IMG/VR virus record: IMGVR_UViG_3300045988_183451
Direction: 5' to 3' (one strand)
From: a virus
DNA length: 64,000 nt
This document shows, piece by piece, positions 7,625-55,219 of this stretch. The number at the start of each line of letters is the position of its first letter. The stretch's first letter is position 1. A program made the position numbers and the translations under genes. The notes under the pieces were generated by a model. That model was not told the DNA's origin, made no database searches, and saw nothing but the letters and a program-made list of their open reading frames with translations.

Positions 7625-7669
7625 AGATAGTTTTATATAAACAATATAAAAGATGTGAAAGGTAAAAAA

Positions 7670-9274
7670 ATGGATATTTTAGAAATAAAAGAAAATAATA
7701 AAAAAATAAAAGAGATTGATAATTTAATTAACACCTATTCATTAAGTAAAGATTTAGGAATACGTCTTTATTACGTTCCTGATAAATACTCAAATGATGA
7801 TAAAGATTATATTGCAATGAAGGTAAATGATAATTTCTATAAAATACCTATGGTAAGATATAATGAAAATCCACTATATTTATTAAATATTATTACAAGA
7901 GATATTTGCAATATTCATTTATTAGAAGAGCTTACAGACACTAAGGTTATAAATGCAATTATAAGTATTTATAAAAAACAAGAATCGTTGTATGATGCTT
8001 TACAATATAAAAAGTGTGAAAGAGATTTGAGTGAAATTAAAGATATATTAGATGATGTTTTAGAACATATCACATTGCCAGCAAGAAGTAATAAAGATGG
8101 TTTTTACGATAGAGAAAAAATAGATGCTATTAAAAGTTATATATCTAAGAATAGTGTTTTTAAACCAGTTTATGAAAACGAACATTGTATTATATTTGGA
8201 AAAAGAATGCCTAAAGATACTGAAAATATATTAGTAAGTAGCCATTCAGATATTGTAAAAGGGATAACTGAAGTAAGTAGTAAATATAAGGATGGATTTT
8301 ATCATGGTACTTATGATAATTTGGGAACTAATGCAGCTTCTGTATGTATTATGTGTATGGATGGGAATAATTTGCCAGACAATGTATTTTTTGCTTTTAC
8401 TGCTGATGAAGAAACAGGTAGATGTTTAGGTGCTAAATCTGCTTATCAATTTATAGATAGAAATTCAAAATATCCAACATTATGTGTATCTTTAGATGTA
8501 ACGGATGAAGGATATGATAATAATAAATTGTGTTCAATAGAAGGACTACATGCTGATAATGATATTAAAAGTAAAATCGCAGATAGTATGATGATAACTG
8601 AAGGAGAAGAACAATCATTTTGTGTTATAAAAGCAAAACACAAAGATAATTCTCCTTTTAATAAAGATTATATTGATGGAAATTATACTGTTTTTGATGA
8701 AGGTGTTTATTATGGTCAGACTTTAAACCAAAATGCATTAAGCTTTTGTTTACCTTCTGATGGAAGTATGCATAGTAATTCAGGATTAGATGTAAAAGAA
8801 GGTGTGTTTATAGGATATATTTTGTCTCTTAATACTTTTATACATGAATACACTAATACTAAAAACTTTGAAATTGAAGATATAAAAGAATATAAAGACT
8901 ATCTTGTAAATAAAGCAAAAGAAACTAAGAAAGTCTATGCTTTTGCTAATCCTAATTATAGACCTGATTTTAATTATGCGCTAGATGATTATGATTATTA
9001 TGAAGAAGATGAAGATTCATATATGGACTCTTTTAGTATTGCTGAATTATATGGTATTGATTTAGATGAAAAAGGGAAAATACCTTCAGATAATATACCA
9101 TATGAATTAGAATCAACATTATCAGAACTTGCAGAAGGATATGATGCAACTGAAATATATGAATATTTAGCAGATATGGATTGTGAATTTGGGGGAATTG
9201 TACCTGAAGAAGTTTTAGTTCCGATTTTTAATAAGTGTCACGAACAGGAAGAGGAATTAGATTATACATCTTAA
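7670..9274 (+). CDS. protein with M42/M20-family metallopeptidase-like metal-binding motifs, acidic C-terminus
   Basis: HSDIV ... YDNLGTNAA ... DEETGRCLGAKSA resemble the HxD / D / EE metal ligands of M42/M20/M28 peptidases; ATG 7670 preferred over track GTG 7655. Confidence 0.5.
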   Translation: MDILEIKENNKKIKEIDNLINTYSLSKDLGIRLYYVPDKYSNDDKDYIAMKVNDNFYKIPMVRYNENPLYLLNIITRDICNIHLLEELTDTKVINAIISIYKKQESLYDALQYKKCERDLSEIKDILDDVLEHITLPARSNKDGFYDREKIDAIKSYISKNSVFKPVYENEHCIIFGKRMPKDTENILVSSHSDIVKGITEVSSKYKDGFYHGTYDNLGTNAASVCIMCMDGNNLPDNVFFAFTADEETGRCLGAKSAYQFIDRNSKYPTLCVSLDVTDEGYDNNKLCSIEGLHADNDIKSKIADSMMITEGEEQSFCVIKAKHKDNSPFNKDYIDGNYTVFDEGVYYGQTLNQNALSFCLPSDGSMHSNSGLDVKEGVFIGYILSLNTFIHEYTNTKNFEIEDIKEYKDYLVNKAKETKKVYAFANPNYRPDFNYALDDYDYYEEDEDSYMDSFSIAELYGIDLDEKGKIPSDNIPYELESTLSELAEGYDATEIYEYLADMDCEFGGIVPEEVLVPIFNKCHEQEEELDYTS

Positions 9275-12261: not shown

Positions 12262-13065
12262 ATGTATTGGGAAAAATTTAATGAAACTTTATGGGATAAT
12301 GCAGATTTAACAAAACATAGAGAAATTAAAGATATTAGAAACATATATAATATAGATTCAAAGTTTCCTGTTATATATGTAGATATGGATGGAACATTAT
12401 TTCAATGGAATAGGATGAAAAGTAAAGAATATCCAGATGGAGTTACATCAGAAATGGTATTTAGTAAAGGATATTTTAGAAATTTAAAACCTAATGAAGG
12501 GATTTTAAATTTAGTTAAAACTTTATATGATAAAGGCTATAATATCAGAATAGCGTCTAAAGCAAAACATTTTGCTATTAATGAGAAGTATGAAAGCTTA
12601 ATGGAATATGTACCTTTTATTAAAAAAGAAGACATATTTTTTATTCCTTTAAATGCAAATAAGTCTGATTTTCTTCCTAATATAAAGTCTAACGATATAT
12701 TGATTGATGATTATAACCCTAATTTAGAAGATTTTAACGGAATTCCTATAAAATGTATTACAGAAATGAATTCAATTAATCCTAAATATAACTGGGTTGA
12801 AGAAAATGCTCCTGTATTTAAAAATATGGATAAAATAACTTGGTCTTTACTTAAAGAATGGAAATCATCACAAACTATAAGTGATAATTCTAAAATACAA
12901 AATTTAAAATACATCTATGATAAAAGCTTAATGACCTATGATAATTTTAAATATATGTGCAAGAATTTAGATATTGATTTAGATAGTATGTTACAAGAAT
13001 TTAATAAATATGATTATAAAGATTATAATGTAAATATTGATAAAGATGATATTACATTAGATTAA
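12262..13065 (+). CDS. HAD-superfamily 5'(3')-deoxyribonucleotidase-like (NT5C-like) hydrolase
   Basis: N-terminal PVIYVDMDGTLFQW DxDGT motif; later IDDYNP-type Asp motif. Confidence 0.55.
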   Translation: MYWEKFNETLWDNADLTKHREIKDIRNIYNIDSKFPVIYVDMDGTLFQWNRMKSKEYPDGVTSEMVFSKGYFRNLKPNEGILNLVKTLYDKGYNIRIASKAKHFAINEKYESLMEYVPFIKKEDIFFIPLNANKSDFLPNIKSNDILIDDYNPNLEDFNGIPIKCITEMNSINPKYNWVEENAPVFKNMDKITWSLLKEWKSSQTISDNSKIQNLKYIYDKSLMTYDNFKYMCKNLDIDLDSMLQEFNKYDYKDYNVNIDKDDITLD

Positions 13066-13368: not shown

Positions 13369-13581
13369 ATGAAAAGAACACAAGCTATTATTCTATGTGA
13401 TGAAATTTATGATATTTGTCAAAATGATAAAAAAGCTGAAAGTATTGATAAATTGATGGATTTTTTATCTAAAAATAAAATAGTAAAAATAGATAAAACG
13501 CTAGATTATGAATGTAAAGGTCAAATGGATATTACTGACTATCCAGAATATTTGCCTGATGATTACGAAATAGGAGATTAG
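13369..13581 (+). CDS. hypothetical small protein
   Basis: ORF ending TAG, immediately followed by ATG 13584. Confidence 0.45.
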   Translation: MKRTQAIILCDEIYDICQNDKKAESIDKLMDFLSKNKIVKIDKTLDYECKGQMDITDYPEYLPDDYEIGD

Positions 13582-21430: not shown

Positions 21431-22564
21431 ATGACTGAAAATTATACAAACCGTTCATTAGAAGAAATTTTAGAAAAAAACAAAAATGAACTTTTTAGTG
21501 AAATTGAGGAGTATTTAAATAATGAAAAGATAACTGATATTGAATGGGATGGAGTTCATTTATGGATAACAGAATTGGGGAAAGGCTGTTATAAAACAAA
21601 TAAAAAATTATCAAAAGAATTTATAAATAATTTAAGTATTAGATTAGCAAATATTATGAAAACAAATTTTAATACACAAAATCCAATACTTGAAGCGCAT
21701 ACTAAAGAATTAAGAATTTCAATTTTTCATGAAACAAGAAGTGAGGAAAAATCATTAACAATAAGAAAAATTCCAACAAATTTAAGGTACGACCACGATA
21801 TTCTTATAGCTAATGGAACAATCCCAGAAGAGCTGCTTAATTTATTAGAAAATTGTATAAAAGCGCATTGCAACATAGTAATAGGTGGAAGACCCCATGC
21901 AGGAAAAACAGAATTGCTTAAGTATCTATCTAATTTTATTCCAGCAAATGAAAAAGTTGTTACATTGGAAGATAATGCAGAAATTCATTATAGAGAAATA
22001 CACCCAGATAGAAAATGTGTTCCCTTTTTAGTAGATGATAAAGTAACATATTCAGATGCTATTAAGGCTTGTTTAAGACACAATGCTGACTGGTTATTAT
22101 TATCAGAATCTCGTGGTCCAGAAATTGTAGAGCTTATAAATGCATTAAGTACTGGTAGTTATTGTATGACAACTATTCACGTAGATGGTGCAAGAGACAT
22201 TCCAGATAGAATGTATAACATGCTTGGAAATAGTAGTGATTCTCCTAGATTTATAAATAATATTTATCGTTATATGGATGTAGGAGTAATGATAAAAGCA
22301 GATAAGAAAGAAAATAGAGTTGTTTCAGAAGTAGGTTTTTTTAATAGAACGAATATAAAAAAAGAGGATGGCTCATATACAACTGAAAACATTTATACCC
22401 CTTTTTATAATACGTTTGAAGGTATTAAAGATAAGGATACATTACCTATTAATATAAAAAGAGCTTTTAGTAGAGCAAAAATAGATAATCCTTTTGAAAG
22501 ACCAGAAACACCAAAAGATATCATTTTTGAAAGGAGTAATAAAACAAATGAAGCAGCAAATTGA
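21431..22564 (+). CDS. CpaF/TadA/VirB11-family secretion ATPase
   Basis: Walker A GGRPHAGKTELL, TLEDNAEIHY, Walker B/Asp-box DWLLLSESRGPE, His-box MTTIHVDGARD; about 377 aa. Confidence 0.7.
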   Translation: MTENYTNRSLEEILEKNKNELFSEIEEYLNNEKITDIEWDGVHLWITELGKGCYKTNKKLSKEFINNLSIRLANIMKTNFNTQNPILEAHTKELRISIFHETRSEEKSLTIRKIPTNLRYDHDILIANGTIPEELLNLLENCIKAHCNIVIGGRPHAGKTELLKYLSNFIPANEKVVTLEDNAEIHYREIHPDRKCVPFLVDDKVTYSDAIKACLRHNADWLLLSESRGPEIVELINALSTGSYCMTTIHVDGARDIPDRMYNMLGNSSDSPRFINNIYRYMDVGVMIKADKKENRVVSEVGFFNRTNIKKEDGSYTTENIYTPFYNTFEGIKDKDTLPINIKRAFSRAKIDNPFERPETPKDIIFERSNKTNEAAN

Positions 22565-25524: not shown

Positions 25525-26802
25525 ATGAATAATCAGTATTCTATAGAAGAAAAGAAAAACAGACATTTATTATTTGATACAAATAAGAACATATTTTTGA
25601 CTGGTCCTGGAGGAACAGGAAAATCAACATTACTAAATGAATTCATTGAAAATAATCCTGATACGATTGTTACAGCTCCAACTGGGTTAGCTGCTGTAAA
25701 TATTGGGGGAGTAACTACATTTAATGCTTTTAGTATACCTATTCCTTGTTTTGGAGCAACAACAAATAAGCTTACAGAAGCTAAATTAAAAAAGATTATA
25801 TTAGCTGATAATATAATTATTGATGAAATAAGTATGTGTAGGGTAGATGCTTTTGTTTATATTGTAAAGGTAATTAAAAAAGCTGAAAAGATAAAAGGTA
25901 AGAAGATAAGAATTATTGTTAGTGGGGATTTTTCACAACTTCCTCCTGTTATTACTGATGAAGATGCTAAAATGTTAAAAAAATTTGGTTTTCATAAATC
26001 TGGATTACCTTTTACCTGTAAAGAATGGGAGAACTGTCATTTTACTACTATTGAACTTACAGAGGTTAAAAGACAGGACAATCTTGAATTTATTGAAAAC
26101 TTACATAAGGCAAGATTAGCAGATAAGAAATGTATTACATATTTTAATCAATTTGTTTCTACTGATGTACCAGAAGATTGTATTCATATATGTGGAACTA
26201 ATGCAGAAAGCTATAGACTTAATAAAGAGTATTTAGATTCTTTAGAAGGGATGCCTTATGCATATCAGGCTATAAAAAAAGGAAGAACTACAGGAGCGTA
26301 TGTAGATGATATTATAGTCCTTAAAGATGGAGCTAATGTATATTTTACTGTTAATGATATATATGGCGGTGAGTATGTTAATGGAACTTTTGGAAAAATA
26401 CATAAGTGTTACAAAGACCATATAGAGGTAGATGTTGATGGAGAAGTTATAGATGTCACACCTCATAGATATTCAGTTTATAATTATAAAATTGTAAATG
26501 GAGCTTTAAAGAAAGAAGAAATAGGTTCAGTTTTACAAATGCCTTTAAAATTAGCTAAAGCGATTACTGTACATAAATCACAAGGAAAAACATTTGACAA
26601 AGAAGTGTTCACTCCTAAAATATTTGCAGCGGGACAGGCTTATGTTGCATTAAGCAGAGTAAGAAGTCCTGAAGGTTTGTTTTTAACAGAACCTTTACTT
26701 CCAGAACAATTAATGTCAGATAAAACAGTGCTAAAATTTTATAAAAACAACTATAAATTTGACATTGTTGGAAAAAAGAAAATAAAAGAGGAAGTAGGAT
26801 GA
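25525..26802 (+). CDS. PIF1/RecD-like SF1B DNA helicase
   Basis: Walker A FLTGPGGTGKSTLLNEF; IIIDEISM; KAITVHKSQGKTFD; YVALSRVRS. Confidence 0.7.
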   Translation: MNNQYSIEEKKNRHLLFDTNKNIFLTGPGGTGKSTLLNEFIENNPDTIVTAPTGLAAVNIGGVTTFNAFSIPIPCFGATTNKLTEAKLKKIILADNIIIDEISMCRVDAFVYIVKVIKKAEKIKGKKIRIIVSGDFSQLPPVITDEDAKMLKKFGFHKSGLPFTCKEWENCHFTTIELTEVKRQDNLEFIENLHKARLADKKCITYFNQFVSTDVPEDCIHICGTNAESYRLNKEYLDSLEGMPYAYQAIKKGRTTGAYVDDIIVLKDGANVYFTVNDIYGGEYVNGTFGKIHKCYKDHIEVDVDGEVIDVTPHRYSVYNYKIVNGALKKEEIGSVLQMPLKLAKAITVHKSQGKTFDKEVFTPKIFAAGQAYVALSRVRSPEGLFLTEPLLPEQLMSDKTVLKFYKNNYKFDIVGKKKIKEEVG

Positions 26803-30739: not shown

Positions 30740-30896
30740 ATATATTTATCTTTACATCCCATACATATTATTGTAATATAATGTATGTTAGGTGTTAGTA
30801 CAAAAGACTGCTTCTTTTCTAAGGAGGTGGTCTTTTTTTATTCTAAAAAAAAATCAATAAAAAATTCTAAAAATCTATTATTTTTTTTACTTTTCC

Positions 30897-32973: not shown

Positions 32974-33426
32974 ATGTTTTTAATGGTAGGGTTTATGAAT
33001 AAGAAATACGAAATAGTTATTTGGAAGAATAAAAGTAAAAGAGATAGAGGAACACCTAATTATATATCCCCTTATTTAGATGCTACTAACATAGAAGCTA
33101 TAAAAGAAGAAGCCTCTGAATATAGTATTGAGGATACAGGATGTATAGAAATTAGAGATATACAAGAAGATATTGCAGTATGTCATTATGAAAATGGTAA
33201 ATGGACAGATTTAAGAGAAAATAATAATAACATGACACAAGAAATGATATGTATATTAAAAAATATATCAGATTTATGTTATCAGGCAAGTAATAAAGTT
33301 TATGATGATGATGACAAAGAAAAAGGAACTGCAAAAATATTAAGTTTGTGTGATAATTTAAGTGAAGCTATTAATGATTATATAAACGATTATGAGAAAA
33401 ATTATGAAGATATAGAATTAGATTAA
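32974..33426 (+). CDS. hypothetical protein
   Basis: ORF track; alternative ATG at 32991 or 32997. Confidence 0.45.
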   Translation: MFLMVGFMNKKYEIVIWKNKSKRDRGTPNYISPYLDATNIEAIKEEASEYSIEDTGCIEIRDIQEDIAVCHYENGKWTDLRENNNNMTQEMICILKNISDLCYQASNKVYDDDDKEKGTAKILSLCDNLSEAINDYINDYEKNYEDIELD

Positions 33427-33446: not shown

Positions 33447-33869
33447 ATGTTTAACAAATTTAAAAGAGAAAAATATCCAGAAAGATATGTTGACTTATGT
33501 AAGTTTGTAAATTTTTATAACGAAATGAATGATTTCTATACATATAATCATCGTAGGCTTTATTTACAAGTTTCAGATAAAGATTGGACTATCATTAGTC
33601 TTGAACAGGAACAACCATTAAATAAAATTTTAAAATTTATGTCTGAGCATCCAGAAGCACGAAAAACGGCATATATAGAAGATACAATAAGCAAAGAAAA
33701 AGATATTAAATTAACAAAACAATTTCGTAAGTTAAATATAGACTACAAGAAAGCTTATAATTTAATTACAGACATAGATAGTCAATTAATACCAGCATTA
33801 GATGAAACAATCGAAAAACAATATTCTACAAAGGAAGACATTAATAATGACTATGATATTGATTATTAA
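33447..33869 (+). CDS. hypothetical protein
   Basis: SD aataggagatataaaaatATG. Confidence 0.45.
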   Translation: MFNKFKREKYPERYVDLCKFVNFYNEMNDFYTYNHRRLYLQVSDKDWTIISLEQEQPLNKILKFMSEHPEARKTAYIEDTISKEKDIKLTKQFRKLNIDYKKAYNLITDIDSQLIPALDETIEKQYSTKEDINNDYDIDY

Positions 33870-33950: not shown

Positions 33951-34838
33951 ATGAGAGATTGGATAAAAAATATTCATACTGTTGATAAGACTTGTGTGAA
34001 TTCTGAAGGAGAATATTATAAATACACAGAATTTGATAGAAAACCAATATCTTTATATATCGTTGTAACAAGAGATTGTAATGCTAGATGTCCTTTTTGT
34101 GAATATAGAGGGAAAACCGAAAAAATTGACATCAGTAAATTTGAGGAAATTTTTATTGAGTTAAGTAAATATTATGATATTACAACAGTTCATTTTACAG
34201 GTGGAGAACCTACCTTAGAATTAGATACAATTAATGCGTTAAGTAAAACTATAAAAGAAATATCTCCTTTATACAAAACAAGTGTTAATACTAATGGAAT
34301 ATTTTTAAATGAATTGTCTAATATAGATACAATAGATAATATTGCTTTAAGCAGACACACTATTATAGATAAAGATAATTTTGATATTTTTAGAACTAAT
34401 AATATTGCTACATATGAAGACATTTATAATAATAATCATAAGGAAAAAATCCATTTGAGTTGTAATCTTATAAGAGGATATATAGATGGTAGTGATAAAA
34501 TATTAGAATATCTTGAAATGGCATCTAAATTAGATATAAATGATGTAGGTTTTGTTAGTCTTATGGATATAAATGATTATTGTGAAGAAAATTTTGTAGA
34601 CTTTAGTAATATAATTCCAAAGGAAAATAACTTTTTTAATAAAACAAGAGATTATAGGTGTATTAATAATAAGAATGTAATTACTTGTAAGTGTGAAAAT
34701 TATCTTTATAGAGCTAAAAATATGAATTTTGTATCAATGTATCATAGATATGTTATTAAGAATAATGAAAAAGCAGATTTTCTTGTTTATGAAAACAATC
34801 ATTTAAAACAAGGATTCAATGGAAATATTATTATATAG
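33951..34838 (+). CDS. radical SAM enzyme (MoaA/SPASM-like class)
   Basis: CNARCPFC Cx3Cx2C motif in VVTRDCNARCPFCEY; HFTGGEPTL SAM-binding glycine motif; C-terminal Cys cluster CINNKNVITCKC; SD aataggagttctatattATG. Confidence 0.65.
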   Translation: MRDWIKNIHTVDKTCVNSEGEYYKYTEFDRKPISLYIVVTRDCNARCPFCEYRGKTEKIDISKFEEIFIELSKYYDITTVHFTGGEPTLELDTINALSKTIKEISPLYKTSVNTNGIFLNELSNIDTIDNIALSRHTIIDKDNFDIFRTNNIATYEDIYNNNHKEKIHLSCNLIRGYIDGSDKILEYLEMASKLDINDVGFVSLMDINDYCEENFVDFSNIIPKENNFFNKTRDYRCINNKNVITCKCENYLYRAKNMNFVSMYHRYVIKNNEKADFLVYENNHLKQGFNGNIII

Positions 34839-34855
34839 AAAGGTAGGATTTAATT

Positions 34856-35002
34856 ATGGAACAGATTATTAAGGAATTAAAAGAAGCAGGATATGATTAT
34901 GGAGTAGCTATTGCAACTAAAGCGGAAATAAAAGCTGGAGCTGCTTGTGGTCAGTTAAGTTTAATAGTTGAAAAGAGTTCAGACAAAGGGATGAATTCTT
35001 AA
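34856..35002 (+). CDS. small 48-aa Gly/Ala/Cys-containing peptide (candidate RiPP precursor)
   Basis: MEQIIKELKEAGYDYGVAIATKAEIKAGAACGQLSLIVEKSSDKGMNS; SD aggtaggatttaattATG; 18 nt downstream of the rSAM gene; below the track cutoff. Confidence 0.3.
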   Translation: MEQIIKELKEAGYDYGVAIATKAEIKAGAACGQLSLIVEKSSDKGMNS

Positions 35003-35018
35003 TATAAGGAGTTTTAAT

Positions 35019-35846
35019 ATGAAACATAATTTAAAAACAATTTCATTTATGATAGCTTCATTTAAAGATATTGTAGGTACATTTGGTATGAATGAAAAAT
35101 CAATATCCTTTTTTAAGAAAAATATAGAAGGATTGTCTGCTATAAGTCAGGTCACTTCATCAGATGCTAATTTAATATATGATATATTAGACATTAATGA
35201 TAAAAATATCAGTTATGAGCAAAGAATGAAATCTTTAAACAAATATGTGATGGCAATAAACAGGGTTCATACTGTTAAAAATAAGGAAACTATTTTTTAT
35301 ATTATAAATGATTTAAGAAATTCTAATGTGATTTCAGAAAAAACTAAAAGGAATGTATTAGAAACCTTAGATATAGATGAAGCTCTTTATAAGGAAAATG
35401 TAATTAATACAATTAAAGCAATTAAAGAAAATAATGATTTTGGAAGTTATTCATTTAATGAAAAATCAGATATTAATATTTCCGAAATTGAGAAATATAA
35501 AGAAATAATTAAAGGTAATAAAAACTTACATATAAAAATCAAAAATGAAAATGCTGTATGTTCTGGTGATAGACATTACTACATCTACAAGTTAAAAGAT
35601 TTTTTAGATACGCTTACCGATAAATATGAAGGCGATAATGCATTAAAGGCTTTAAAATATGGAGATTTTATTATAGGTCAAGAAGAGAGTTCTCCATCAG
35701 GGGACCCTTGCAGAGGTTTTATTACAACATTTAGAGAAGATACTAAGATTAAAGCTGAATTTTTAAAAATTAATTGGAACAAGGTAGTTGCTGAATTAAC
35801 TATTAATAAAGACAAACAAACTGACGATTTAGATTATGATTATTAA
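35019..35846 (+). CDS. hypothetical protein
   Basis: SD aaggagttttaatATG. Confidence 0.5.
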   Translation: MKHNLKTISFMIASFKDIVGTFGMNEKSISFFKKNIEGLSAISQVTSSDANLIYDILDINDKNISYEQRMKSLNKYVMAINRVHTVKNKETIFYIINDLRNSNVISEKTKRNVLETLDIDEALYKENVINTIKAIKENNDFGSYSFNEKSDINISEIEKYKEIIKGNKNLHIKIKNENAVCSGDRHYYIYKLKDFLDTLTDKYEGDNALKALKYGDFIIGQEESSPSGDPCRGFITTFREDTKIKAEFLKINWNKVVAELTINKDKQTDDLDYDY

Positions 35847-35909
35847 TTAATAATATTTATAAAAAAGGTGCTAAGTGAAATTATTTAGTATCTTTTTTTA
35901 ATGTCTATT

Positions 35910-35919
35910 GCACTATTAT
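35910..35919 (+). promoter_or_regulatory. conserved CACTATTAT promoter-like motif
   Basis: tctattgCACTATTATattataaagataaaaaggagtcgttaaaagATG. Confidence 0.45.
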
Positions 35920-35949
35920 ATTATAAAGATAAAAAGGAGTCGTTAAAAG

Positions 35950-36747
35950 ATGAAAGAAGTAACAAGTAGAGAGTTTGCTAATGGAAAAGTATATATGTTA
36001 ATGACTGATGATAATTATCCTATAGAAGTGACTGATACTTTTTTACCTTTCTATACAAAGGATTGTATTAATGAACACACGAATGAACTTAGGGAAGATG
36101 TGCTAGGTTCAAGAGAAGAAAGATGGATGATTGGCGTTAGTTGTATGAGTGGTTGTCCTGTAAGATGCCAATTTTGTAATACTGGGAAATTAAAAAGATA
36201 TAGAAATTTATCTGCAAAAGAGATATATGAACAGGTTGTTTTTATATTAGACAATCATCCAGAGATAAAAGAGATTAATAGTAAGGAATTTAAAATTAAT
36301 TATACAAGAATGGGAGAACCTTTCCTTAATATTGAAGCTGTAAAAGAAGCTATTACTCTTATAGACAATGAGCCAAGACTAAAGAATGTCAAGATACATC
36401 ATTATATAAGCACAATAGGTCTTAAAGGCAGTGATTTTAGTTTTGTAAAGGATAATATTACTTTACAAATTAGCCTACATAGTCTTAATGAGGATAGAAG
36501 ACATAATCTTATTCCTATAAAGGGTCTTATGAGTATAGAAGAATTAGGACAGATAAGAACTAATAGTAATTTAAAAACAACTGTTAATATGACGCTTGTA
36601 GATACAAAAGACTTTGATATTAATATTATGAAAAAGTATTTTGACCCTAAGTATTTTTTTATTAAGCTTAGTCCTATTAATGAGAATGAGGTTAGTAAGG
36701 AACATAATATGGGTAAAGGTATTATTCATAGAGATAATTTAATTTAA
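35950..36747 (+). CDS. RlmN/Cfr-like radical SAM RNA methyltransferase, truncated (265 aa)
   Basis: GVSCMSGCPVRCQFCNTG (compare RlmN SQVGCALECKFCSTA); YTRMGEPFLN (compare MGMGEPLLN); ISTIGLKGS...LQISLHSLNEDRRHNLIPIKG (compare LSTSG...[21 protein letters not shown]); lacks the N- and C-terminal extensions of RlmN. Confidence 0.6.
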   Translation: MKEVTSREFANGKVYMLMTDDNYPIEVTDTFLPFYTKDCINEHTNELREDVLGSREERWMIGVSCMSGCPVRCQFCNTGKLKRYRNLSAKEIYEQVVFILDNHPEIKEINSKEFKINYTRMGEPFLNIEAVKEAITLIDNEPRLKNVKIHHYISTIGLKGSDFSFVKDNITLQISLHSLNEDRRHNLIPIKGLMSIEELGQIRTNSNLKTTVNMTLVDTKDFDINIMKKYFDPKYFFIKLSPINENEVSKEHNMGKGIIHRDNLI

Positions 36748-36870
36748 GATTTATTACGAATACCACATCAAGCATTATTGGTGTGGTATTTTTTTACTTG
36801 TAATGTATCTCCAATTTGGATATAATATAACAAAAATAGATTGTGGTATAAAAGAAAAAGAGGAATTTTT

Positions 36871-37305
36871 ATGTATAATAATATTTCAAGTAATATAAAA
36901 GGATTAAGAAAAATAACAGGATTATCACAAAGCGAATTTGCTTCTAAATATAAAATACAAAAGAGAACCTTACAAAATTGGGAGCAAGGTATATCAAAAG
37001 CACCAGAGTATTTTATAGACCTGTTATCAAAAGATATTCTAAAGACAAATGATACAACAAAAACATATACTATTACTGGAAAAAAGGGAAAATATATCTA
37101 TAATGATTGTAAAGGACGTCTTATAGACGATAAAGGAAATAATATTAATATAAAAATACCTGATTTTGATAAGATAAATAAACATAATTTAGGTTTGTAT
37201 TGTGACTTTTTATTTGAAGATTATAAAAATAGTATTAAAGATTTTATAAATCAATGTAAAGGAGATATAAAATCAGATGTAATATGGACTACTTTTGATA
37301 ATTAA
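36871..37305 (+). CDS. XRE-family HTH protein (HipB-like antitoxin candidate)
   Basis: IKGLRKITGLSQSEFASKYKIQKRTLQNWEQGISKAP helix-turn-helix; SD aagaggaatttttATG at 36871 (track start 36841 is non-ATG). Confidence 0.55.
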   Translation: MYNNISSNIKGLRKITGLSQSEFASKYKIQKRTLQNWEQGISKAPEYFIDLLSKDILKTNDTTKTYTITGKKGKYIYNDCKGRLIDDKGNNINIKIPDFDKINKHNLGLYCDFLFEDYKNSIKDFINQCKGDIKSDVIWTTFDN

Positions 37306-37308
37306 AAG

Positions 37309-38580
37309 ATGAAAGGAAAATTTATGAAAGATTATATATTAATGCATAAGAATATTGAAGTAGCATTAATGAAGTTAGATGAAAATGATGCTAATTCAAA
37401 ACCATCAAAAATATATCTGAATGAAAAAGAACAAGACCATATTCCTATTGGAGCAAGGATGAATAATATTAAATTCATTAACTGGTGGCAGGATAGAGCA
37501 ATACCTAAAACAAGACAGGGAGCAAAAACAGCCCTACAAAGATTAGGATATAGTTCAGTTACTAATGCTATGATAAATAATCTAGCCTTAAGTCTTAATG
37601 ATTGCTATTGGATTAAGCCCAGATATTCAGAACTTACCTGGGAAGAAGTTAATTTATTTTCAAATAATTTTGTTGATGCTTTTGGAGAACTTACCTTTAA
37701 CCAAACAGAAGATTTAGATTTGAGAAGATATACTAAGTTTTTAAGTGCTGTTTCACAAGGAGAGGTTCAAAAAAAATGGTGTATAGATAAGAATAATCAT
37801 AGGTATCTTGTAAAAGGTAATTATGGCAATTCATATCAACAAAGTATTAATGAGGTGTTTGCAAGTAATTTTCATAAAGACCAGGATTTTAATAATTATA
37901 CTCCTTATTATTTTTGTAATATTGAACTTACAAATAGTAGAAAAGGATTAGGATGTTTTTCTTATAATTTTTGTAATGAAAATATTGAGAGTATTTCAGC
38001 TTGGGAATTATTACAAACTAGAAAGATTAAACAAAATGAAAGCTTATATTATCCTTTCAAAGATATATGTTTATCACTAGGAATCAAAGAAGATGATTTT
38101 GATAATTTTATTGATTATGAGATTTGTAGTGATTTTTTATTTACTAATCTTGATAGACATATGAATAATATCAGTATTTTAAGAAATCCAGATACATTAG
38201 AAATATTAGGGTTTGCTCCTATATATGATACTGGAAATAGTATGTTTTATAATGTTCCTACTAATGAATTAAATAATGTTAAGTTAGGACAAGATAAAAC
38301 ACATTCATTTATAACGTCAAAAGAAAATAGATTACTAAAGTATGTTAGAAATAAAGAGATTATAAACATAGACAAAATTAATGCTGATTTCTCAATATAC
38401 GAAAAGGATATTTATGATAATGATTTAAGGATTTCTTTATTAAAAGAAAAATTTGAAAGAAAAGTAGATTTATTGTTGTCTTTTCAAAAAGGTAATAATA
38501 TATGGGAAGATAATTATAATAAATCATATATACAAAAATTTAATAATCTAATAGGAACTGATGAAATTGATTTAGATTAA
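37309..38580 (+). CDS. HipA-like Ser/Thr kinase (toxin candidate)
   Basis: Catalytic loop FLFTNLDRHMNNISIL (D-x-H-x-x-N) and APIYDTGNSMFY (HipA YD motif); alternative start ATG 37324. Confidence 0.6.
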   Translation: MKGKFMKDYILMHKNIEVALMKLDENDANSKPSKIYLNEKEQDHIPIGARMNNIKFINWWQDRAIPKTRQGAKTALQRLGYSSVTNAMINNLALSLNDCYWIKPRYSELTWEEVNLFSNNFVDAFGELTFNQTEDLDLRRYTKFLSAVSQGEVQKKWCIDKNNHRYLVKGNYGNSYQQSINEVFASNFHKDQDFNNYTPYYFCNIELTNSRKGLGCFSYNFCNENIESISAWELLQTRKIKQNESLYYPFKDICLSLGIKEDDFDNFIDYEICSDFLFTNLDRHMNNISILRNPDTLEILGFAPIYDTGNSMFYNVPTNELNNVKLGQDKTHSFITSKENRLLKYVRNKEIINIDKINADFSIYEKDIYDNDLRISLLKEKFERKVDLLLSFQKGNNIWEDNYNKSYIQKFNNLIGTDEIDLD

Positions 38581-38590
38581 TAGTAGTATG

Positions 38591-38629
38591 AGAGCTTATT
38601 TTTATATTAAAAAATAGGCTCTTTTTTTA
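38591..38629 (+). terminator. rho-independent terminator
   Basis: agagcttat...ataggctct stem then ttttttt. Confidence 0.55.
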
Positions 38630-40831: not shown

Positions 40832-41089
40832 ATGAATAAAAAGAGAAATATCAAATATTATATTGTGGTGTTAGTTATAGGAATACTAATTGAGTCTACA
40901 TATTTGCTTCCTATTTTTACTATTGCTATAAATAGAAGCTTATCTATGGATGATAGTTTTTTATTATTACAAACCCAATTTCCAGAAGTTATAAATATAT
41001 TAAGATGTTATTCAATTATCGGAGGTACAGCTATTGGATTTTCAATAGGAGTAATATTTTCCAAAGAGAGGTGTAAAGAATATGAATAA
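40832..41089 (+). CDS. small membrane protein
   Basis: SD taagaggtaatatttATG. Confidence 0.4.
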   Translation: MNKKRNIKYYIVVLVIGILIESTYLLPIFTIAINRSLSMDDSFLLLQTQFPEVINILRCYSIIGGTAIGFSIGVIFSKERCKEYE

Positions 41090-41504
41090 AAATGATATTA
41101 AAGTAGGTAATAAAGTTTGGTTTCAAGAATATCTTACAGAAAGAATTGTATACGGAATAGTAGAGCAAATAGGTGATAATGAAATAGGTAATGATGTTGT
41201 AAAAATTCATGGAAAACATTATGATAATGGAAATAGTTTCTTAGGGTTTTGTTGGAAATCATTTAAAGATATATATAAAACTAAAGATGATTGTATTAAT
41301 GATATTAGAGCTAAAAATGATGTTATTGTTAAAAAATATAAAGCAGAAATTGTCGATTTATATAGTCTTATAAACTTTCCTCTTGAACATAATGTAGGGC
41401 AATGTGATGAATATACCGATTATGAAGCTATTAGGGCTTATAAGGAAAGAGCTGTTGAATTAGGCTTTGATATAGATTTAGAAAATGATATAGAAAGGGA
41501 TTGA
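41082..41504 (+). CDS. hypothetical protein
   Basis: Overlaps the upstream stop; SD gagaggtgtaaagaatATG. Confidence 0.45.
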   Translation: MNKNDIKVGNKVWFQEYLTERIVYGIVEQIGDNEIGNDVVKIHGKHYDNGNSFLGFCWKSFKDIYKTKDDCINDIRAKNDVIVKKYKAEIVDLYSLINFPLEHNVGQCDEYTDYEAIRAYKERAVELGFDIDLENDIERD

Positions 41505-43698: not shown

Positions 43699-44496
43699 AT
43701 GATGATAGCTTTAACATATAGATGTAATATGGGATGCACTCATTGTATTTCAGATTGTAAACCAGATGGAATAGATATGAGTAAAGACACCCTAATTGAT
43801 AGTCTTGATTTTATAAATAAACATAAAATAAAAGCAATATTATTTTCTGGCGGTGAACCATTTGCGCATCCAGATATTATATCTTTACTTGATGTTATAG
43901 AAGAAAAATTAGATAAGAATATCCCTATTACCTTTGCTACAAATGGAAGAGTTTTAGCAGATAATATTGAAATTTATGAAAAAGTATCTGAATTAGTTAA
44001 GAAAAATAAGAAAAGAATAATCATACAGGTTACAGATGATGATAGATTTTACCCTACTAAACTTAATGAAAAACAAAGATATAGACTAGAAAAAATAGGT
44101 GCTATTATAGAAGGCGTTCCTAGTTATGTTTCTGATAGAAATAAATGTTTATATCCACAAGGTAGAGCTTTAGATAATTTTGATGAATCTTTTTATTATA
44201 CTATTGCTCCTAAATGTGTAAATGTACGATTATTAGTAAGACAGAATATAAATAAAATATCAAATATATGTGATACATTGCTTATGAGAGGAAAAATGTG
44301 TACTCCAGTAATTGCTCCTAATGGTATGTTAAAAATAGGAGAGTCGGCTTTGTGTCCTGAAGTAGCTTCAATTTATGATAATGAAACAGATATTATAAGA
44401 AAAATATCTCATTTTAATTGTAATAAATGTACATACGCACTTGAACAGTTAAAGAGAAATAACTTACTTGCTTATAATCTATTAATAAAGGAGTAA
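43699..44496 (+). CDS. radical SAM enzyme (MoaA/SPASM-like class)
   Basis: ALTYRCNMGCTHC Cx3Cx2C; LFSGGEPFAHPD; C-terminal Cys-rich region including FNCNKCTY; SD aaaaggtggtacttaaaatATG. Confidence 0.65.
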   Translation: MMIALTYRCNMGCTHCISDCKPDGIDMSKDTLIDSLDFINKHKIKAILFSGGEPFAHPDIISLLDVIEEKLDKNIPITFATNGRVLADNIEIYEKVSELVKKNKKRIIIQVTDDDRFYPTKLNEKQRYRLEKIGAIIEGVPSYVSDRNKCLYPQGRALDNFDESFYYTIAPKCVNVRLLVRQNINKISNICDTLLMRGKMCTPVIAPNGMLKIGESALCPEVASIYDNETDIIRKISHFNCNKCTYALEQLKRNNLLAYNLLIKE

Positions 44497-46003: not shown

Positions 46004-46540
46004 ATGGAAAATAGAGAGATAAAGTTTATTTGCGGTTGGACTATTGAACAAGCTATAAAGGAATTACATGAAAGAGCGAAGGATGGCAATAAATATTATG
46101 GTGATTTTAATGGGAACAAACTGACATCCGATATGTCTTTAGATGATGCTTATATGCTTTGTATCGGAAAAACTTTTGAACAATTTAATAAAGAACAAGA
46201 AGAGAGCCGTCAAAGATTAATTCAAGAAGAGGAAGAACATAAAAGGAAAATTCCTGAATTATCAAAGTATTGGATAAAAGAAGGTCATAAAGTCTTATCA
46301 AAGGATAAATGGGAAATGTGGGATAAATGTGTTCCTATTCGACTTAGTGATTTATATAGAGGAATGGAACTTGGTCTGTGCTTAGACATTATCAGAACCG
46401 TTAAAGAAAAATCTATTCAAGATGGAATTGAAGTTATGAATAATCAGGAACATTCTGGTATGTCATGGGGATTAATGAAGTCTATGATTAGAGAATTTTG
46501 TGATTGCGGAAATGAATTTTTAGAACAGTTAGAAGAATAA
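46004..46540 (+). CDS. hypothetical protein
   Basis: SD gattagaggtagaaaaATG. Confidence 0.5.
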   Translation: MENREIKFICGWTIEQAIKELHERAKDGNKYYGDFNGNKLTSDMSLDDAYMLCIGKTFEQFNKEQEESRQRLIQEEEEHKRKIPELSKYWIKEGHKVLSKDKWEMWDKCVPIRLSDLYRGMELGLCLDIIRTVKEKSIQDGIEVMNNQEHSGMSWGLMKSMIREFCDCGNEFLEQLEE

Positions 46541-52453: not shown

Positions 52454-55219
52454 ATGGATAATACAAATAATAACGTAATTGAGTGTATGGTTCATCTTGA
52501 AAGATTTAATGAAAAACCAAATAAGTTTCAGATAGGTTCTATTCAGAATAATATGCATCCAGAAACTATTCAAATTGAATATCTTGCAGAATCTCTTGTT
52601 AATGGTGCTTCTTTTAAGCCAGGAGTATTGATAGGTGGACGTTCTAAAGATAACTGGGTAAGACAACAGCTTTTCGGATTAGATTTTGATGATGGAACTC
52701 CAATAGAAATCTCTTATAGAAAAGCTATTGATTTAGGATTAACACCTATTTTTATGTATACTACATTTAGTCATACATCAGAACATCATAAGTATAGAAT
52801 GATTTTTTGTGCAGATGAAGTAATTACAGATGGAAATAAAAGAGACAAGCTTCAAGCAACTCTTATGGGAATAATGGGAGATATAGACAAGGTTTGTTTT
52901 AATAGAGATAGATTATTTTTTGGTGGAAAAGGTAAAGAAGTACTTTTTCCTAGTTTTAATGCAAGAGTTAATGCTAACGAAGTAATTAATAAATATTGGA
53001 AAGATGAATATGCTGCTTTTATAAGTGGAAATACATCTTCAAGCAAACAGAAAAGAACAAAAAAAGTAAGTACTAAAAATACTTTAACAAGTATAAATAC
53101 ATCAAATGTAATTAATTATGAACCATTAATAGATGAGGAAATAAAAGCAGCTTATCCTGTAAAATGTGTTTCTATGTATAATTTAAAATGCTTAAAAGAA
53201 TATTTTGACTATAATGTATGGATTGAGGGGTCTCATAGAGAAAGATTTATATTCATATATTATAACTGTTCTAAAATTATAAATGGTTCGGTACAGGCTT
53301 TTAAAGAATGCTTAGAATACAATAGGGAGATGGATGAGCCATTATCAATGTATGAATTAAAATCAGCAATAATGCATACAGATGAGCATATTGAGAATAA
53401 AGATTGGTATAGACTAGCATTACATGACAATGGCAGTTTTATTTTTAAGCCAGAAACTATTATAAGTGAAAAATGGTTAGATATAAACGAAGATATAGCA
53501 AAAGCTTGTGGATTTCTTGACAATAAAATAAATAAAGAGAATATACTTAAGAATAAAGAAAGAGACAGACAGAGAGATAAAATGATAGCAGAATTATATT
53601 TATCTGGATTAGGTTATCAGAATGTATCTAAGGCATTACCGGAAGAATATAAATGTTGTAAGAATACTGTTAAAAGAACAGTAGAAAGACTAGGAATTAA
53701 AGACAGAAATATATCTTTTAATAATATACAATTTGAAGAAAAGGAAAAGTATAAGCGTGTAGGGGTGCAAACATTGACTAAACTAGAAAAAAGTTCAAGC
53801 TTCCCTATCTTCTCTAACATAACTTCAGTAGATGATAAAAATGAAATGAATATATTAGATAAAGAAATTATTAAAGAAGAGAATATTAATAGAATTAACG
53901 CAGGTAGGTATTTAGACAAGACTTGTGAAGAATTGGCTAACAAGGCTAAAGAAGCTAATAAGAAGTCTAATGACAATGAACAAGATATAGCTATAAATAC
54001 AATATTAGCAAATCCTAATATAAATTATTGTTTATACGGTAAAGCTGGTACTGGCAAGAGTTTTTGTATTAATACTTTATTACAAAGGTTATCAGAAGAA
54101 GAAAGAAATAGAACAGTTGTAATAGCTCCAACAGGTATAGCAGCTTCTAATATTACATATGCAACAGCAACAACTATACATTCATTATTTGAGTTACATA
54201 CATTTATTTACAGTAAAGATAGTTCTATTAAGATACCTAACAAGTTATTAGGAGTAAGAAGAATAATTATAGATGAAATAGGAATGGTTAGGAAAGATAT
54301 ATTTACACAATTAATAAGAGTTGTTAAGGCTGTTGAAGAAAAGACAGGAAATAAGATACAACTCATCTTTTCAGGTGACTATGGTCAGATTTCTCCAGTT
54401 GTTACTAAGAAAGATAAGGCAATAATAGATATGTATTATGAAGAAAGCAAGAATAAGTATTTTTGTTTTGATAGTCCATTATGGAACGAACTTAATCTTC
54501 AGAATATTGTTTTAAGAAACAATCATAGACATAATAACAATAATAACGATGAATTACAGGAAGAATTTATCAATGCTTGTGATGATATTAAGTTTGGATT
54601 ATTAAACAGAATATCTTGGTTAAACAACAATATAGCTCATACAGCTATTAATGATGCAATATATCTTTGTGCTAATAATAAGCAGGTAGATGATTATAAT
54701 TCACTTTATACTAAGGATTTTATAGGAACACAAGTATACAAAGCTAAGATTGAATTAGGTGAAAGATATAATGAAGGATTTAATCTTAACAATGTTAAAC
54801 TGCCTGTAAAAGCAGAATTAAATTTAGCAGTAGGCATGCGTGTAATGACACTTGTTAATACAAAGAGCTATAAGAATGGAAGCTTAGGTACTATCACAGC
54901 ATTATTAGACAACAAGGTAAAAGTTAAGTTAGATAGTACTGGAAGAGAAGTAACAGTAAGAGCTGCTAAATTTGATATTGAAAGCTTAGAGGAAAGCAAT
55001 ATGTATCAGATACCAATAGCAATAGCATATGCAATAACAGTAAATAAAGCACAAGGATTAACACTTGATAAGGCTAATATCGTTCCAGGATTTTTTGCAC
55101 CAGGACAGTTATATACAGCTATTACAAGAATAAAAAATGTACATAACATAAGTATAATTGGTGACTTAAAAGAAAGTGATTTAGTTGTAGATTCAAGAGC
55201 ATTAAGTCTAATAGCTTAA
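52454..55219 (+). CDS. replication protein: N-terminal AEP-type primase-polymerase (PrimPol) domain, central HTH, C-terminal PIF1/RecD-like SF1B helicase
   Basis: N-terminal FGLDFDDGTPIE (DxD) and FSHTSEHHKYRMIF (sxH..H) AEP motifs; HTH IAELYLSGLGYQNVSKALPE; C-terminal LYGKAGTGKSFCINTL, IIIDEIGMVRKD, YAITVNKAQGLTLD, YTAITRIKN; SD aaagaaaggggttttgttttATG. Confidence 0.65.
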   Translation: MDNTNNNVIECMVHLERFNEKPNKFQIGSIQNNMHPETIQIEYLAESLVNGASFKPGVLIGGRSKDNWVRQQLFGLDFDDGTPIEISYRKAIDLGLTPIFMYTTFSHTSEHHKYRMIFCADEVITDGNKRDKLQATLMGIMGDIDKVCFNRDRLFFGGKGKEVLFPSFNARVNANEVINKYWKDEYAAFISGNTSSSKQKRTKKVSTKNTLTSINTSNVINYEPLIDEEIKAAYPVKCVSMYNLKCLKEYFDYNVWIEGSHRERFIFIYYNCSKIINGSVQAFKECLEYNREMDEPLSMYELKSAIMHTDEHIENKDWYRLALHDNGSFIFKPETIISEKWLDINEDIAKACGFLDNKINKENILKNKERDRQRDKMIAELYLSGLGYQNVSKALPEEYKCCKNTVKRTVERLGIKDRNISFNNIQFEEKEKYKRVGVQTLTKLEKSSSFPIFSNITSVDDKNEMNILDKEIIKEENINRINAGRYLDKTCEELANKAKEANKKSNDNEQDIAINTILANPNINYCLYGKAGTGKSFCINTLLQRLSEEERNRTVVIAPTGIAASNITYATATTIHSLFELHTFIYSKDSSIKIPNKLLGVRRIIIDEIGMVRKDIFTQLIRVVKAVEEKTGNKIQLIFSGDYGQISPVVTKKDKAIIDMYYEESKNKYFCFDSPLWNELNLQNIVLRNNHRHNNNNNDELQEEFINACDDIKFGLLNRISWLNNNIAHTAINDAIYLCANNKQVDDYNSLYTKDFIGTQVYKAKIELGERYNEGFNLNNVKLPVKAELNLAVGMRVMTLVNTKSYKNGSLGTITALLDNKVKVKLDSTGREVTVRAAKFDIESLEESNMYQIPIAIAYAITVNKAQGLTLDKANIVPGFFAPGQLYTAITRIKNVHNISIIGDLKESDLVVDSRALSLIA

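Follow-up and report, generated by a model that had tools for sequence, protein, structure and literature searches.

A phage-borne radical SAM enzyme related to RlmN and Cfr that is probably split into a catalytic core and a cysteine-bearing peptide

A four-gene module was analyzed at positions 33,951 to 36,747 of a 64,000-nucleotide stretch of viral DNA (IMG/VR record IMGVR_UViG_3300045988_183451), the whole of which is referred to below as the window. The module encodes a radical S-adenosylmethionine (SAM) enzyme of 295 amino acids (rSAM1), a peptide of 48 amino acids (PEP), a protein of 275 amino acids (p275), and a protein of 265 amino acids resembling the methylases RlmN and Cfr (CORE). 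All four open reading frames (ORFs) listed in a preceding sequence-only reading were found to be present. The constant unit of the module, formed by CORE and PEP, is probably a split radical SAM enzyme of the class A type, related to RlmN and Cfr, in which the core and the cysteine arm would act in trans.

PEP itself can be regarded with considerable confidence as the detached catalytic arm of the core enzyme, corresponding to the C-terminal helix-strand-loop of RlmN and Cfr. As far as the searches show, this split system of core and PEP is widespread in phages and undescribed, since full-text searches of the literature brought up nothing on an RlmN-like system that is split or carried by phages.

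The RlmN/Cfr-like core

CORE carries the motifs GCPVRCQFC (residues 68–76), MGEP (residues 121–124), and ISLHS (residues 174–178). It matched the RlmN profile TIGR00048 with an E-value of 1.4e-22 and a score of 80.1 bits (family cut-off 290), and the Cfr profiles NF000424 and TIGR04432 with 60.1 bits (cut-off 530) and 55.5 bits (cut-off 550), respectively. Sequences of RlmN crystal structures were matched at 1.2e-13, and those of Cfr crystal structures were matched as well. As the TIGR00048 alignment was confined to profile positions 91–244 of 355, the truncation at both ends, proposed earlier together with the RlmN/Cfr likeness, is real.

The protein begins with a β-hairpin equivalent to RlmN residues ~85–105, with zero alignment upstream of profile position 91. 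Its chain stops after FIKLSPINEN (36658–36687), the counterpart of the RlmN sequence ‘INLIPWNP’, which is the strand preceding the cysteine arm. A family-specific insertion is present at approximately residues 33–57. Across the family, the only invariant cysteines are the cluster ligands C69, C73, and C76; Cys65, at position −4, is variable, with Thr or Val in many members. CORE was found to be under purifying selection.

In one homolog, located on a contig binned to a Methanoregula metagenome-assembled genome (L039:143-1768), an intein-like insertion of ~280 amino acids was observed right after the Fe-S motif (GCPVGCKFC / LLPTS...VHN / CATGKL). Inteins usually occupy functionally critical sites of important proteins.

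The 48-residue peptide

PEP starts 17 nt downstream of the rSAM1 stop codon. The sequence-only reading had given this gap as 18 nt; its Shine-Dalgarno sequence, GGTAGGA, and the peptide sequence it quoted were both present. PEP and CORE each have their own start codon and ribosome-binding site, and gene callers predict PEP on metagenome contigs. Within PEP codons 12–36, the variable columns were distributed as 10, 6, and 24 over codon positions 1, 2, and 3, respectively, which is a coding signature indicating purifying selection.

The family consensus is MExIxxxLxxxGYDYA[VI]A[IV]ATxAEIxxGAACGQL, in which AACGQ is invariant and Cys31 is the single conserved cysteine. Far from lacking conservation in relatives, as had been allowed for earlier, the small ORF is nearly invariant across relatives whose enzymes are 35–80% identical, and its conservation exceeds that of the enzymes. 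One viral-locus copy (probably L116) has no Cys motif (…AEISAGAASIITEE), through either degeneration or misassembly. No family match was obtained in Pfam, NCBIfam, PHROGs, or PADLOC for PEP-type ORFs of 40–48 amino acids, nor for p275.

Linkage of the peptide to the core

Pairing of PEP and core was inspected in 33 genome and metagenome loci and in 80 viral loci. PEP was present with the core in 110 of the 113 loci (32 of 33 and 78 of 80, respectively), irrespective of accessory genes. The three cultured phages inspected, including Pectobacterium and Moorella phages with cores only 35–44% identical, likewise have PEP next to the core.

In about 28 viral loci, the PEP start falls within −26 to +23 nt of the core stop codon; in the remaining loci, core and PEP enclose one to three accessory genes. 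The architectures of the viral loci comprised core-peptide (33 loci), core-F5-F6-peptide (33 loci, plus variants), and core-rSAM1(-p275)-peptide (about 10 loci), together with mixtures; F5 and F6 are accessory genes described below.

Natural fusions were also detected. PEP is joined to the N-terminus of the core in protein P0125 and to its C-terminus in P0188 and P0202, and a hidden Markov model (HMM) of PEP matched these three proteins at 3e-12, 4.5e-8, and 1.9e-5, respectively. The same HMM ranked 38 real RlmN-type proteins, each matched at its extreme C-terminal end, above the top-scoring one of 2,710 decoys. After iteration, single-chain relatives of ~300 amino acids reached 1e-13 to 1e-18, with no decoy included. 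These relatives are also matched by the curated RlmN and Cfr profiles right up to the C-terminal profile end, and the PEP of the window aligns in register with their C-termini.

The sequence AACGQL of PEP is the C-terminal motif of RlmN and Cfr that holds the methyl-carrier cysteine, and it is also found near the end of E. coli RlmN. The ‘GAAC’ segment, previously likened to sactipeptide cores, is instead part of this motif. Two 48-residue members of the PEP cluster are labeled ‘adenine C2-methylase RlmN’ by the JGI annotation pipeline. The methyl-carrier cysteine (C355 in RlmN, C338 in Cfr) is absent from the 265-residue chain and, judged by homology through the fused intermediates, would be supplied as Cys31 of PEP. 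Absence of both mechanistic cysteines from the RlmN-like protein, named earlier as a refuting observation, is therefore literally true of the 265-residue chain, but one of the two appears to be provided by the 48-residue ORF.

Predicted structure of the pair

An AlphaFold2 model was obtained for an artificial concatenation of the window’s CORE and PEP as one chain, with 38 database homologs including the natural fusions. The model reached a predicted local distance difference test (pLDDT) score of 91.5 and a predicted template modeling (pTM) score of 0.90. The PEP blocks scored 81–95 and were ordered as helix-strand-loop(Cys)-helix.

When this model was compared with the PDB by Foldseek, the ten best matches were all RlmN (E-values of 6e-15 to 2e-10, template modeling (TM) score up to 0.70), and the next family was SkfB (5e-6, TM 0.44). 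The modeled pair thus adopts the RlmN/Cfr fold. From the core insertion at approximately residues 33–57 and the 258 aligned residues, the model suggests that part of PEP superposes on RlmN as well.

Distribution

Proteins identical to those of the window were found on human-gut metagenome contigs of up to 291–296 kb. Core homologs numbered 1,977 with lengths of 262–270 amino acids in the word index, and 6,015 representative matches were obtained. At 56–67% identity, the core was found on contigs binned to Bacilli, Clostridia, Bacteroidales, Alphaproteobacteria, Saccharibacteria, and three archaeal lineages.

The core was further detected on 250 IMG/VR viral contigs and in cultured phages, namely the crAss-like Kehishuvirus ‘tikkala’ (61%), Moorella phage MTATph1 (44%), and Pectobacterium, Yersinia, and Vibrio phages (33–35%), in which it is annotated as hypothetical. 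The viral contigs and cultured phages indicate that the core family is phage-borne. Automated pipelines mislabel the core as ‘23S rRNA methyltransferase’, and two phage records label the core match ‘prohibitin family protein’.

Accessory genes

The coordinates of the module and of its surroundings are given in Table 1.

Table 1. Features of the module, its neighborhood, and related loci.
Feature	Position	Strand	Remarks
rSAM1, accessory radical SAM enzyme, 295 aa	33951..34838	+	CNARCPFC at residues 43-50 (34077-34100); Pfam Radical_SAM 4.4e-12
Further invariant rSAM1 cysteines	C15 33993-33995; C171 34461-34463; C246/C248 within 34686-34709	+	Alignment of 36 homologs
Shine-Dalgarno-like GGTAGGA	34842..34848	+	7 nt upstream of PEP ATG; read from sequence
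PEP, putative 48-aa Cys-carrier peptide	34856..35002	+	AACGQL at 34940-34957; Cys31 codon 34946-34948
p275, accessory protein, 275 aa	35019..35846	+	AVCSGD at 35553-35570; internal GDPC at 35700-35711
CORE, RlmN/Cfr-like radical SAM catalytic core, 265 aa	35950..36747	+	GCPVRCQFC at 36151-36177
Terminator-like hairpin	30802..30836	+	16-pair stem then T run; upstream boundary of the unit ending with the module
Terminator-like hairpin	36758..36791	+	14-pair stem, 4 GC pairs, then T run; 10 nt after CORE stop; unit end
SPFH/flotillin protein, 524 aa	31217..32791	+	Pfam Band_7 5e-22, Flot 2e-10
SPFH/Band_7 genes at other loci	L041:3455-4672; L124:3566-4423		
Short Cys-tailed rSAM1 neighbors	L035:6784-7116, L045:4814-5266, L058:4801-5088, L071:5155-5442, L125:5427-5999 and others		‘...DPC[GSH]x(8-14)C-COOH’, otherwise unrelated
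ORFs with acidic/hydrophobic tail	7655-9274, 12262-13065, 13369-13581, 32974-33426, 35019-35846, 37309-38580, 41082-41504, 46004-46540 (also 33447-33869)		

rSAM1 is indeed the CX3CX2C radical SAM enzyme that it had been taken for, with CNARCPFC as its cluster motif. Its family is narrow and unnamed (126 homologs were found), and it occurs in about 19 of about 119 loci, or about one in six. Homologs only 33–38% identical still adjoin core and PEP, which marks rSAM1 as a dedicated accessory. As for the C-terminal cysteine cluster noticed earlier, C236, C246, and C248 are all present, but C236 is not invariant; across 36 homologs, only C15, C171, C246, and C248 are invariant besides the triad. 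With these four extra invariant cysteines, rSAM1 probably carries an auxiliary Fe-S cluster of a kind other than that of SPASM or twitch enzymes.

No SPASM domain (PF13186) or other Pfam match beyond Radical_SAM and Fer4_12 was detected in rSAM1. Its AlphaFold2 model (pLDDT 92.5) shows a C-terminal β-sheet domain at residues 229–287. By Foldseek, only the generic radical SAM core of ~200 residues was matched, with viperin-like proteins marginally best (TM ~0.5); the matches to the SPASM/twitch enzymes SuiB, CteB, anSME, and SkfB covered only the same ~200-residue core and were no better ranked. Assignment of rSAM1 as a SPASM or twitch enzyme was accordingly rejected by both Pfam and fold.

The N-terminal half of rSAM1 weakly matches MoaA, viperin, and HxsC, all far below the curated cut-offs. 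Its identification as viperin was rejected on a TIGR04278 score of 24.5 bits against 450, a PADLOC pVip match restricted to residues 36–169, and a TM of ~0.5. Identification as MoaA was rejected as well, the scores being ~49–52 bits against cut-offs of 231–325 and the cysteine pattern being CxC plus distant cysteines, not CX2CX13C.

p275 is fast-evolving, with homologs in only 11 clusters, none of them with a Pfam domain. In other rSAM1 loci, its place is held by short proteins ending in [DG][PG]C[GSTH]x(4-22)C-COOH. Nine such ORFs were counted among 2,534, and eight of the nine lie in the 19 rSAM1 loci (p ~2e-6, for a motif defined post hoc). The neighbor in locus L124 has a Gly/Cys-rich variant of the DPC...C tail. 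A jackhmmer search started from p275 failed to reach the short ‘DPC...C’ partners. The tail resembles one that would serve rSAM1 as substrate or carrier, and its recurrence suggests that rSAM1 probably acts on, or with, its Cys-tailed neighbor.

Lying between core and PEP, rSAM1 and p275 form a sub-module that is accessory and optional. At the same place in other phages, an alternative sub-module was found, consisting of F5, a different MoaA-like radical SAM protein, and F6, which has a weak match to class I methyltransferases. A specific kinship between rSAM1 and F5 was rejected, as the two share no more than the generic N-terminal half (102 columns; hhalign 1.8e-9), a similarity like that between rSAM1 and the core.

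Proposed mechanism and points against it

In the proposed two-chain enzyme, the 265-residue core would bind a [4Fe-4S] cluster and SAM, and PEP, encoded by a separate gene, would dock on the core and bring Cys31, which belongs to AACGQL, into the active site. On the model of RlmN and Cfr, a first SAM molecule would methylate Cys31, and a second would be cleaved to a 5'-deoxyadenosyl radical, which would activate the S-methyl group. The methylene radical would then attack an unreactive substrate carbon.

In RlmN and Cfr, the methyl group is carried by C355 and C338, respectively, on a flexible loop in a ping-pong mechanism (PMC9692996), which makes supply of the carrier cysteine in trans chemically plausible. 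Formation of the core-PEP complex and S-methylation of Cys31 are steps that we infer from this analogy, and on the same basis the system most likely works like RlmN and Cfr as far as formation of the methylene radical. Within the two-chain model, methyl transfer to a nucleic-acid base is considered to have somewhat less than an even chance of being the chemistry performed.

Several observations weigh against an enzyme of this kind. In alignments with profiles and with crystal-structure sequences, CORE has no counterpart of the N-terminal helical RNA-binding domain of RlmN and Cfr, and its scores lie far under the curated cut-offs of both families. The residue aligned with RlmN residue 118 is Gly62 (within 36130–36144), which is an invariant Gly across the family. 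C118 of RlmN and C105 of Cfr, located seven residues before the first cluster cysteine, are indispensable for resolving the covalent enzyme-RNA cross-link, and the RlmN C118A variant traps the protein-RNA cross-link (PDB 5HR6/5HR7; PMC9692996). Since this resolving cysteine is an invariant Gly here, with no other conserved cysteine in core or peptide, the canonical catalytic cycle cannot run as written. In summary, the cluster, MGEP, and SLHS motifs of RlmN and Cfr are found, whereas the resolving cysteine, the N-terminal domain, and scores at the family level are not; lacking the first two of these defining features in its alignments, the core-PEP system is not a canonical RlmN.

Other points concern the peptide. 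A Smith-Waterman comparison of PEP with E. coli RlmN gave a score of 33, which was reached by 144 of 2,000 shuffles and is not significant, and a PDB profile search with the PEP alignment returned no RlmN at E<10. With the PEP HMM, E. coli RlmN stayed at E ~0.07–0.12 even after iteration. At the sequence level, the link between PEP and RlmN depends on intermediates and on positional logic, direct statistics on so short a peptide being weak. In addition, PEP is fused in P0378 to the C-terminus of an rSAM1 homolog and not to a core. This fusion hints that PEP also interacts with rSAM1, which it may serve or of which it may be a substrate. The structural model, finally, was computed from an artificial single-chain concatenation and judged by its confidence scores and Foldseek matches.

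Alternative explanations

The sequence-only reading had allowed for either an RNA-modification module or a cassette for a peptide that is synthesized ribosomally and modified post-translationally (RiPP). The RlmN/Cfr-type reading fitted the data better, and PEP as a sactipeptide- or ranthipeptide-like core matured by rSAM1 found no support. In such a cassette, PEP would be a precursor whose cysteine is cross-linked by rSAM1, and the RlmN-like enzyme would be a tailoring methylase or unrelated. The location of PEP 17 nt downstream of rSAM1, its usual position as the next gene wherever rSAM1 occurs, the rSAM1::peptide fusion P0378, and weak N-terminal matches of rSAM1 to the peptide maturases HxsC, CcpM, and PapB would all be expected from this arrangement. 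However, in ~85% of loci PEP occurs in the absence of rSAM1, but a PEP lacking its core is essentially never seen, natural fusions to the core exist in both orientations, and PEP is homologous to an enzyme segment. It is also near-invariant across phage lineages without a leader/core pattern, and no conserved protease or exporter was found near the loci. The maturase matches are of the generic radical SAM N-terminal kind and far below cut-offs, and the lack of a SPASM or twitch domain in rSAM1, by Pfam and by fold, refutes the RiPP reading as it had been posed. A RiPP cassette is therefore judged very improbable; the only part of the idea that survives is the hypothesis that rSAM1 modifies its Cys-tailed partner. 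Even less can be said for an artefact or decay, in which the 48-residue ORF and the 265-residue gene would be fragments of a broken housekeeping rlmN. The two pieces together do resemble a single RlmN without its N-terminal domain, but more than 110 loci of highly diverse phages keep the split, functional genes (one to three) often lie between the pieces, and both pieces are under purifying selection with their own start codons and ribosome-binding sites. These conservation data effectively refute such an origin, and its likelihood is negligible.

A different question is whether PEP is regenerated at all. It could be a stoichiometric co-substrate that each reaction leaves bound to the target (a nucleic-acid base or a protein) by a methylene thioether, in which case the phage enzyme would be a peptide-tagging enzyme and not a methyltransferase. 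An invariant Gly at the C118 position with no further conserved cysteine is what such a consumable carrier would require, RlmN C118A traps just such a protein-RNA cross-link (PDB 5HR6/5HR7), and encoding PEP in a small gene apart, with a ribosome-binding site of its own, permits an excess over the enzyme. On the other hand, the single-chain relatives are also without the resolving cysteine and would be inactivated by a suicide reaction, which suggests another route of resolution; another base or an external thiol could stand in for C118, and the adduct itself is hypothetical. This explanation is considered unlikely but is given some weight. A similarly small share is assigned to PEP as a free-standing, exchangeable methyl(ene)-carrier peptide, ending attached to a host or phage nucleic-acid base or to a Cys-tailed partner protein, or as one carrier shared by the RlmN-like core and rSAM1, the latter because natural PEP fusions to both exist. 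Finally, rSAM1, as a MoaA/viperin-like enzyme, and the RlmN-like pair might together convert free nucleotides into a modified purine nucleotide, which would serve in hypermodification of phage DNA or act as an anti-defense molecule. MoaA and viperin, the best sequence and fold neighbors of rSAM1, act on GTP and CTP, the core has no RNA-binding domain, and phage nucleotide-metabolism genes (NrdD, thymidylate synthase, and NAMPT) lie near some loci. Against this, the viperin/MoaA likeness is restricted to the generic N-terminal half (TM ~0.5; 24–52 bits against 231–450), rSAM1 is missing from most loci, and we know of no phage DNA with C-methylated adenine, so that such a pathway appears decidedly unlikely.

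Genomic context

The G+C content of the window is ~25%, and nearly all genes are on the + strand. Four terminator-like sites were found in 8.4 kb, compared with 0.9 expected from shuffled sequences, and the same hairpin scan detected none between the hairpin at 30802–30836 and position 36758. This hairpin and the one at 36758–36791 bracket a probable single transcription unit running from the SPFH/flotillin gene to the RlmN-like gene.

In 8 of 117 loci, that of the crAss-like Kehishuvirus among them, a gene of the SPFH/Band_7 type (flotillin- or prohibitin-like) was located at a distance of 1–5 kb from the core. With only these eight loci, an obligatory partnership was rejected. The SPFH gene is a recurrent upstream neighbor, possibly co-transcribed, and is to be regarded as context rather than as a demonstrated part of the mechanism. 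As further single-case hints toward RNA or nucleotides, an RtcB RNA ligase gene adjoins the module in one locus (L124:7051-7608) and an anaerobic ribonucleotide reductase (NrdD) gene lies near another (L125:235-1833).

Megablast of the 30–40 kb region against phage and plasmid collections gave zero matches, and tRNA and Rfam scans over the whole window found nothing. A 44-mer taken from the window had no exact counterpart in IMG/VR. PHROGs and Pfam searches with 20 large ORFs of the window returned almost no matches; the window probably belongs to a large gut phage or to a phage-like element. Very few of its genes were recognizable, namely those for a T2SSE/VirB11-type ATPase and two Dda/RecD-like helicases (21431–22564, 25525–26802, and 52454–55219). 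Most large ORFs, including one of 1,592 amino acids at 435–5213, have no Pfam or PHROGs match, and a jumbo phage and a megaplasmid are both possible.

A third radical SAM gene was found at 43699–44496 (+). Its product of 265 amino acids has CNMGCTHC at residues 9–16, a Cys-rich C-terminus, and generic family matches, the best being TIGR04317 (7.5e-14, 51.6 bits against a cut-off of 380). It was rejected as a paralog of the core, and its flanking ORFs gave zero family matches. Within 10 kb, the element thus has genes for three distinct radical SAM enzymes.

Downstream of the module terminator, genes for a helix-turn-helix (HTH) protein (36841–37305) and a HipA_C-like kinase (37309–38580) follow on the + strand, with the PADLOC candidate PDC-M03A at 1.8e-15, and the pair closes at a terminator-like hairpin at 38590–38623. 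It is a candidate toxin-antitoxin or defense pair. An acidic/hydrophobic C-terminal tail (e.g., ...DDLDYDY, ...YEDIELD, ...DEIDLD) was observed in 8 of 82 ORFs, compared with ~1.2 expected from internal 8-mer frequencies. Judged from these sequences, the tails may be a shared C-terminal docking motif.

Significance

The class A radical SAM methylases RlmN and Cfr are single-chain enzymes defined by two cysteines. The core-PEP pair would be a large natural family in which the methyl-carrier cysteine resides on a separate peptide of 40–50 amino acids and the resolving cysteine is missing, which makes one ask by what route, if any, the covalent adduct is resolved. If PEP works in trans, the ping-pong mechanism becomes dissectable, as the carrier can be loaded, isolated, and titrated. 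If it is consumed, the pair would represent a phage-encoded activity for the peptide tagging of macromolecules.

Conservation of the pair in hundreds of phage genomes, including crAss-like and jumbo phages, points to an unexplained and probably important function in infection. The crAss-like phages are among the most abundant human gut viruses. Kehishuvirus ‘tikkala’ has a cultured host, Bacteroides cellulosilyticus, and thus offers a directly testable system.

Comparison with known systems

The RiPP maturases AlbA, CteB, PapB, and SkfB are resembled by the presence of a radical SAM gene directly upstream of a Cys-containing small ORF and by weak generic similarity. They differ in that rSAM1 has no SPASM or twitch domain, and leader/core architecture, a conserved protease, and a transporter are lacking here. 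A dedicated precursor co-occurs with its maturase in such systems, whereas the 48-residue ORF tracks the core.

With viperin/pVip and MoaA, the N-terminal radical SAM half of rSAM1 can be aligned (PADLOC pVip 9e-12, MoaA 6e-14), but only ~200 of its 295 residues are covered, at a TM of ~0.5. rSAM1 additionally has a C-terminal β-domain with an invariant CxC, plus C15 and C171, and, in contrast to viperin/pVip, it is phage-encoded and not from defense islands.

The best sequence and structural match of the core-PEP pair is RlmN, the C2-methylase of 23S rRNA A2503 and tRNA A37 (PDB 3RFA, 5HR7, 6FZ6). The motifs GCxxxCxFC, MGEP, and SLHS...R and the ‘INLIPxNP’-type strand are shared, and the methyl-carrier loop AACGQL is identical. 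RlmN is one chain, while two polypeptides are found here; the core has no RNA-binding domain at its N-terminus, an invariant Gly occupies the position of Cys118, two extra residues stand between G[FY] and Cys, and the phage-borne core reaches 80 bits against the family cut-off of 290. The same differences apply to Cfr, the C8-methylase of 23S rRNA A2503 that confers antibiotic resistance (PDB 9P0P), with 60 bits against 530 and no indication of action on the ribosome.

Further relatives are uncharacterized single-chain RlmN-like proteins of ~300 amino acids (e.g., P0180, P0200, P0209, and P0261), which end in ‘...G[FY]xxIxSIGxxxENxIGSNCGQ’. These proteins and the fused P0188 and P0202 are likewise without the N-terminal domain and the C118 equivalent, and their core and C-terminal segment are homologous to CORE and PEP. 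Unlike the window, they hold core and arm in one chain, and in P0125 the arm is placed at the N-terminus, which amounts to a circular permutation.

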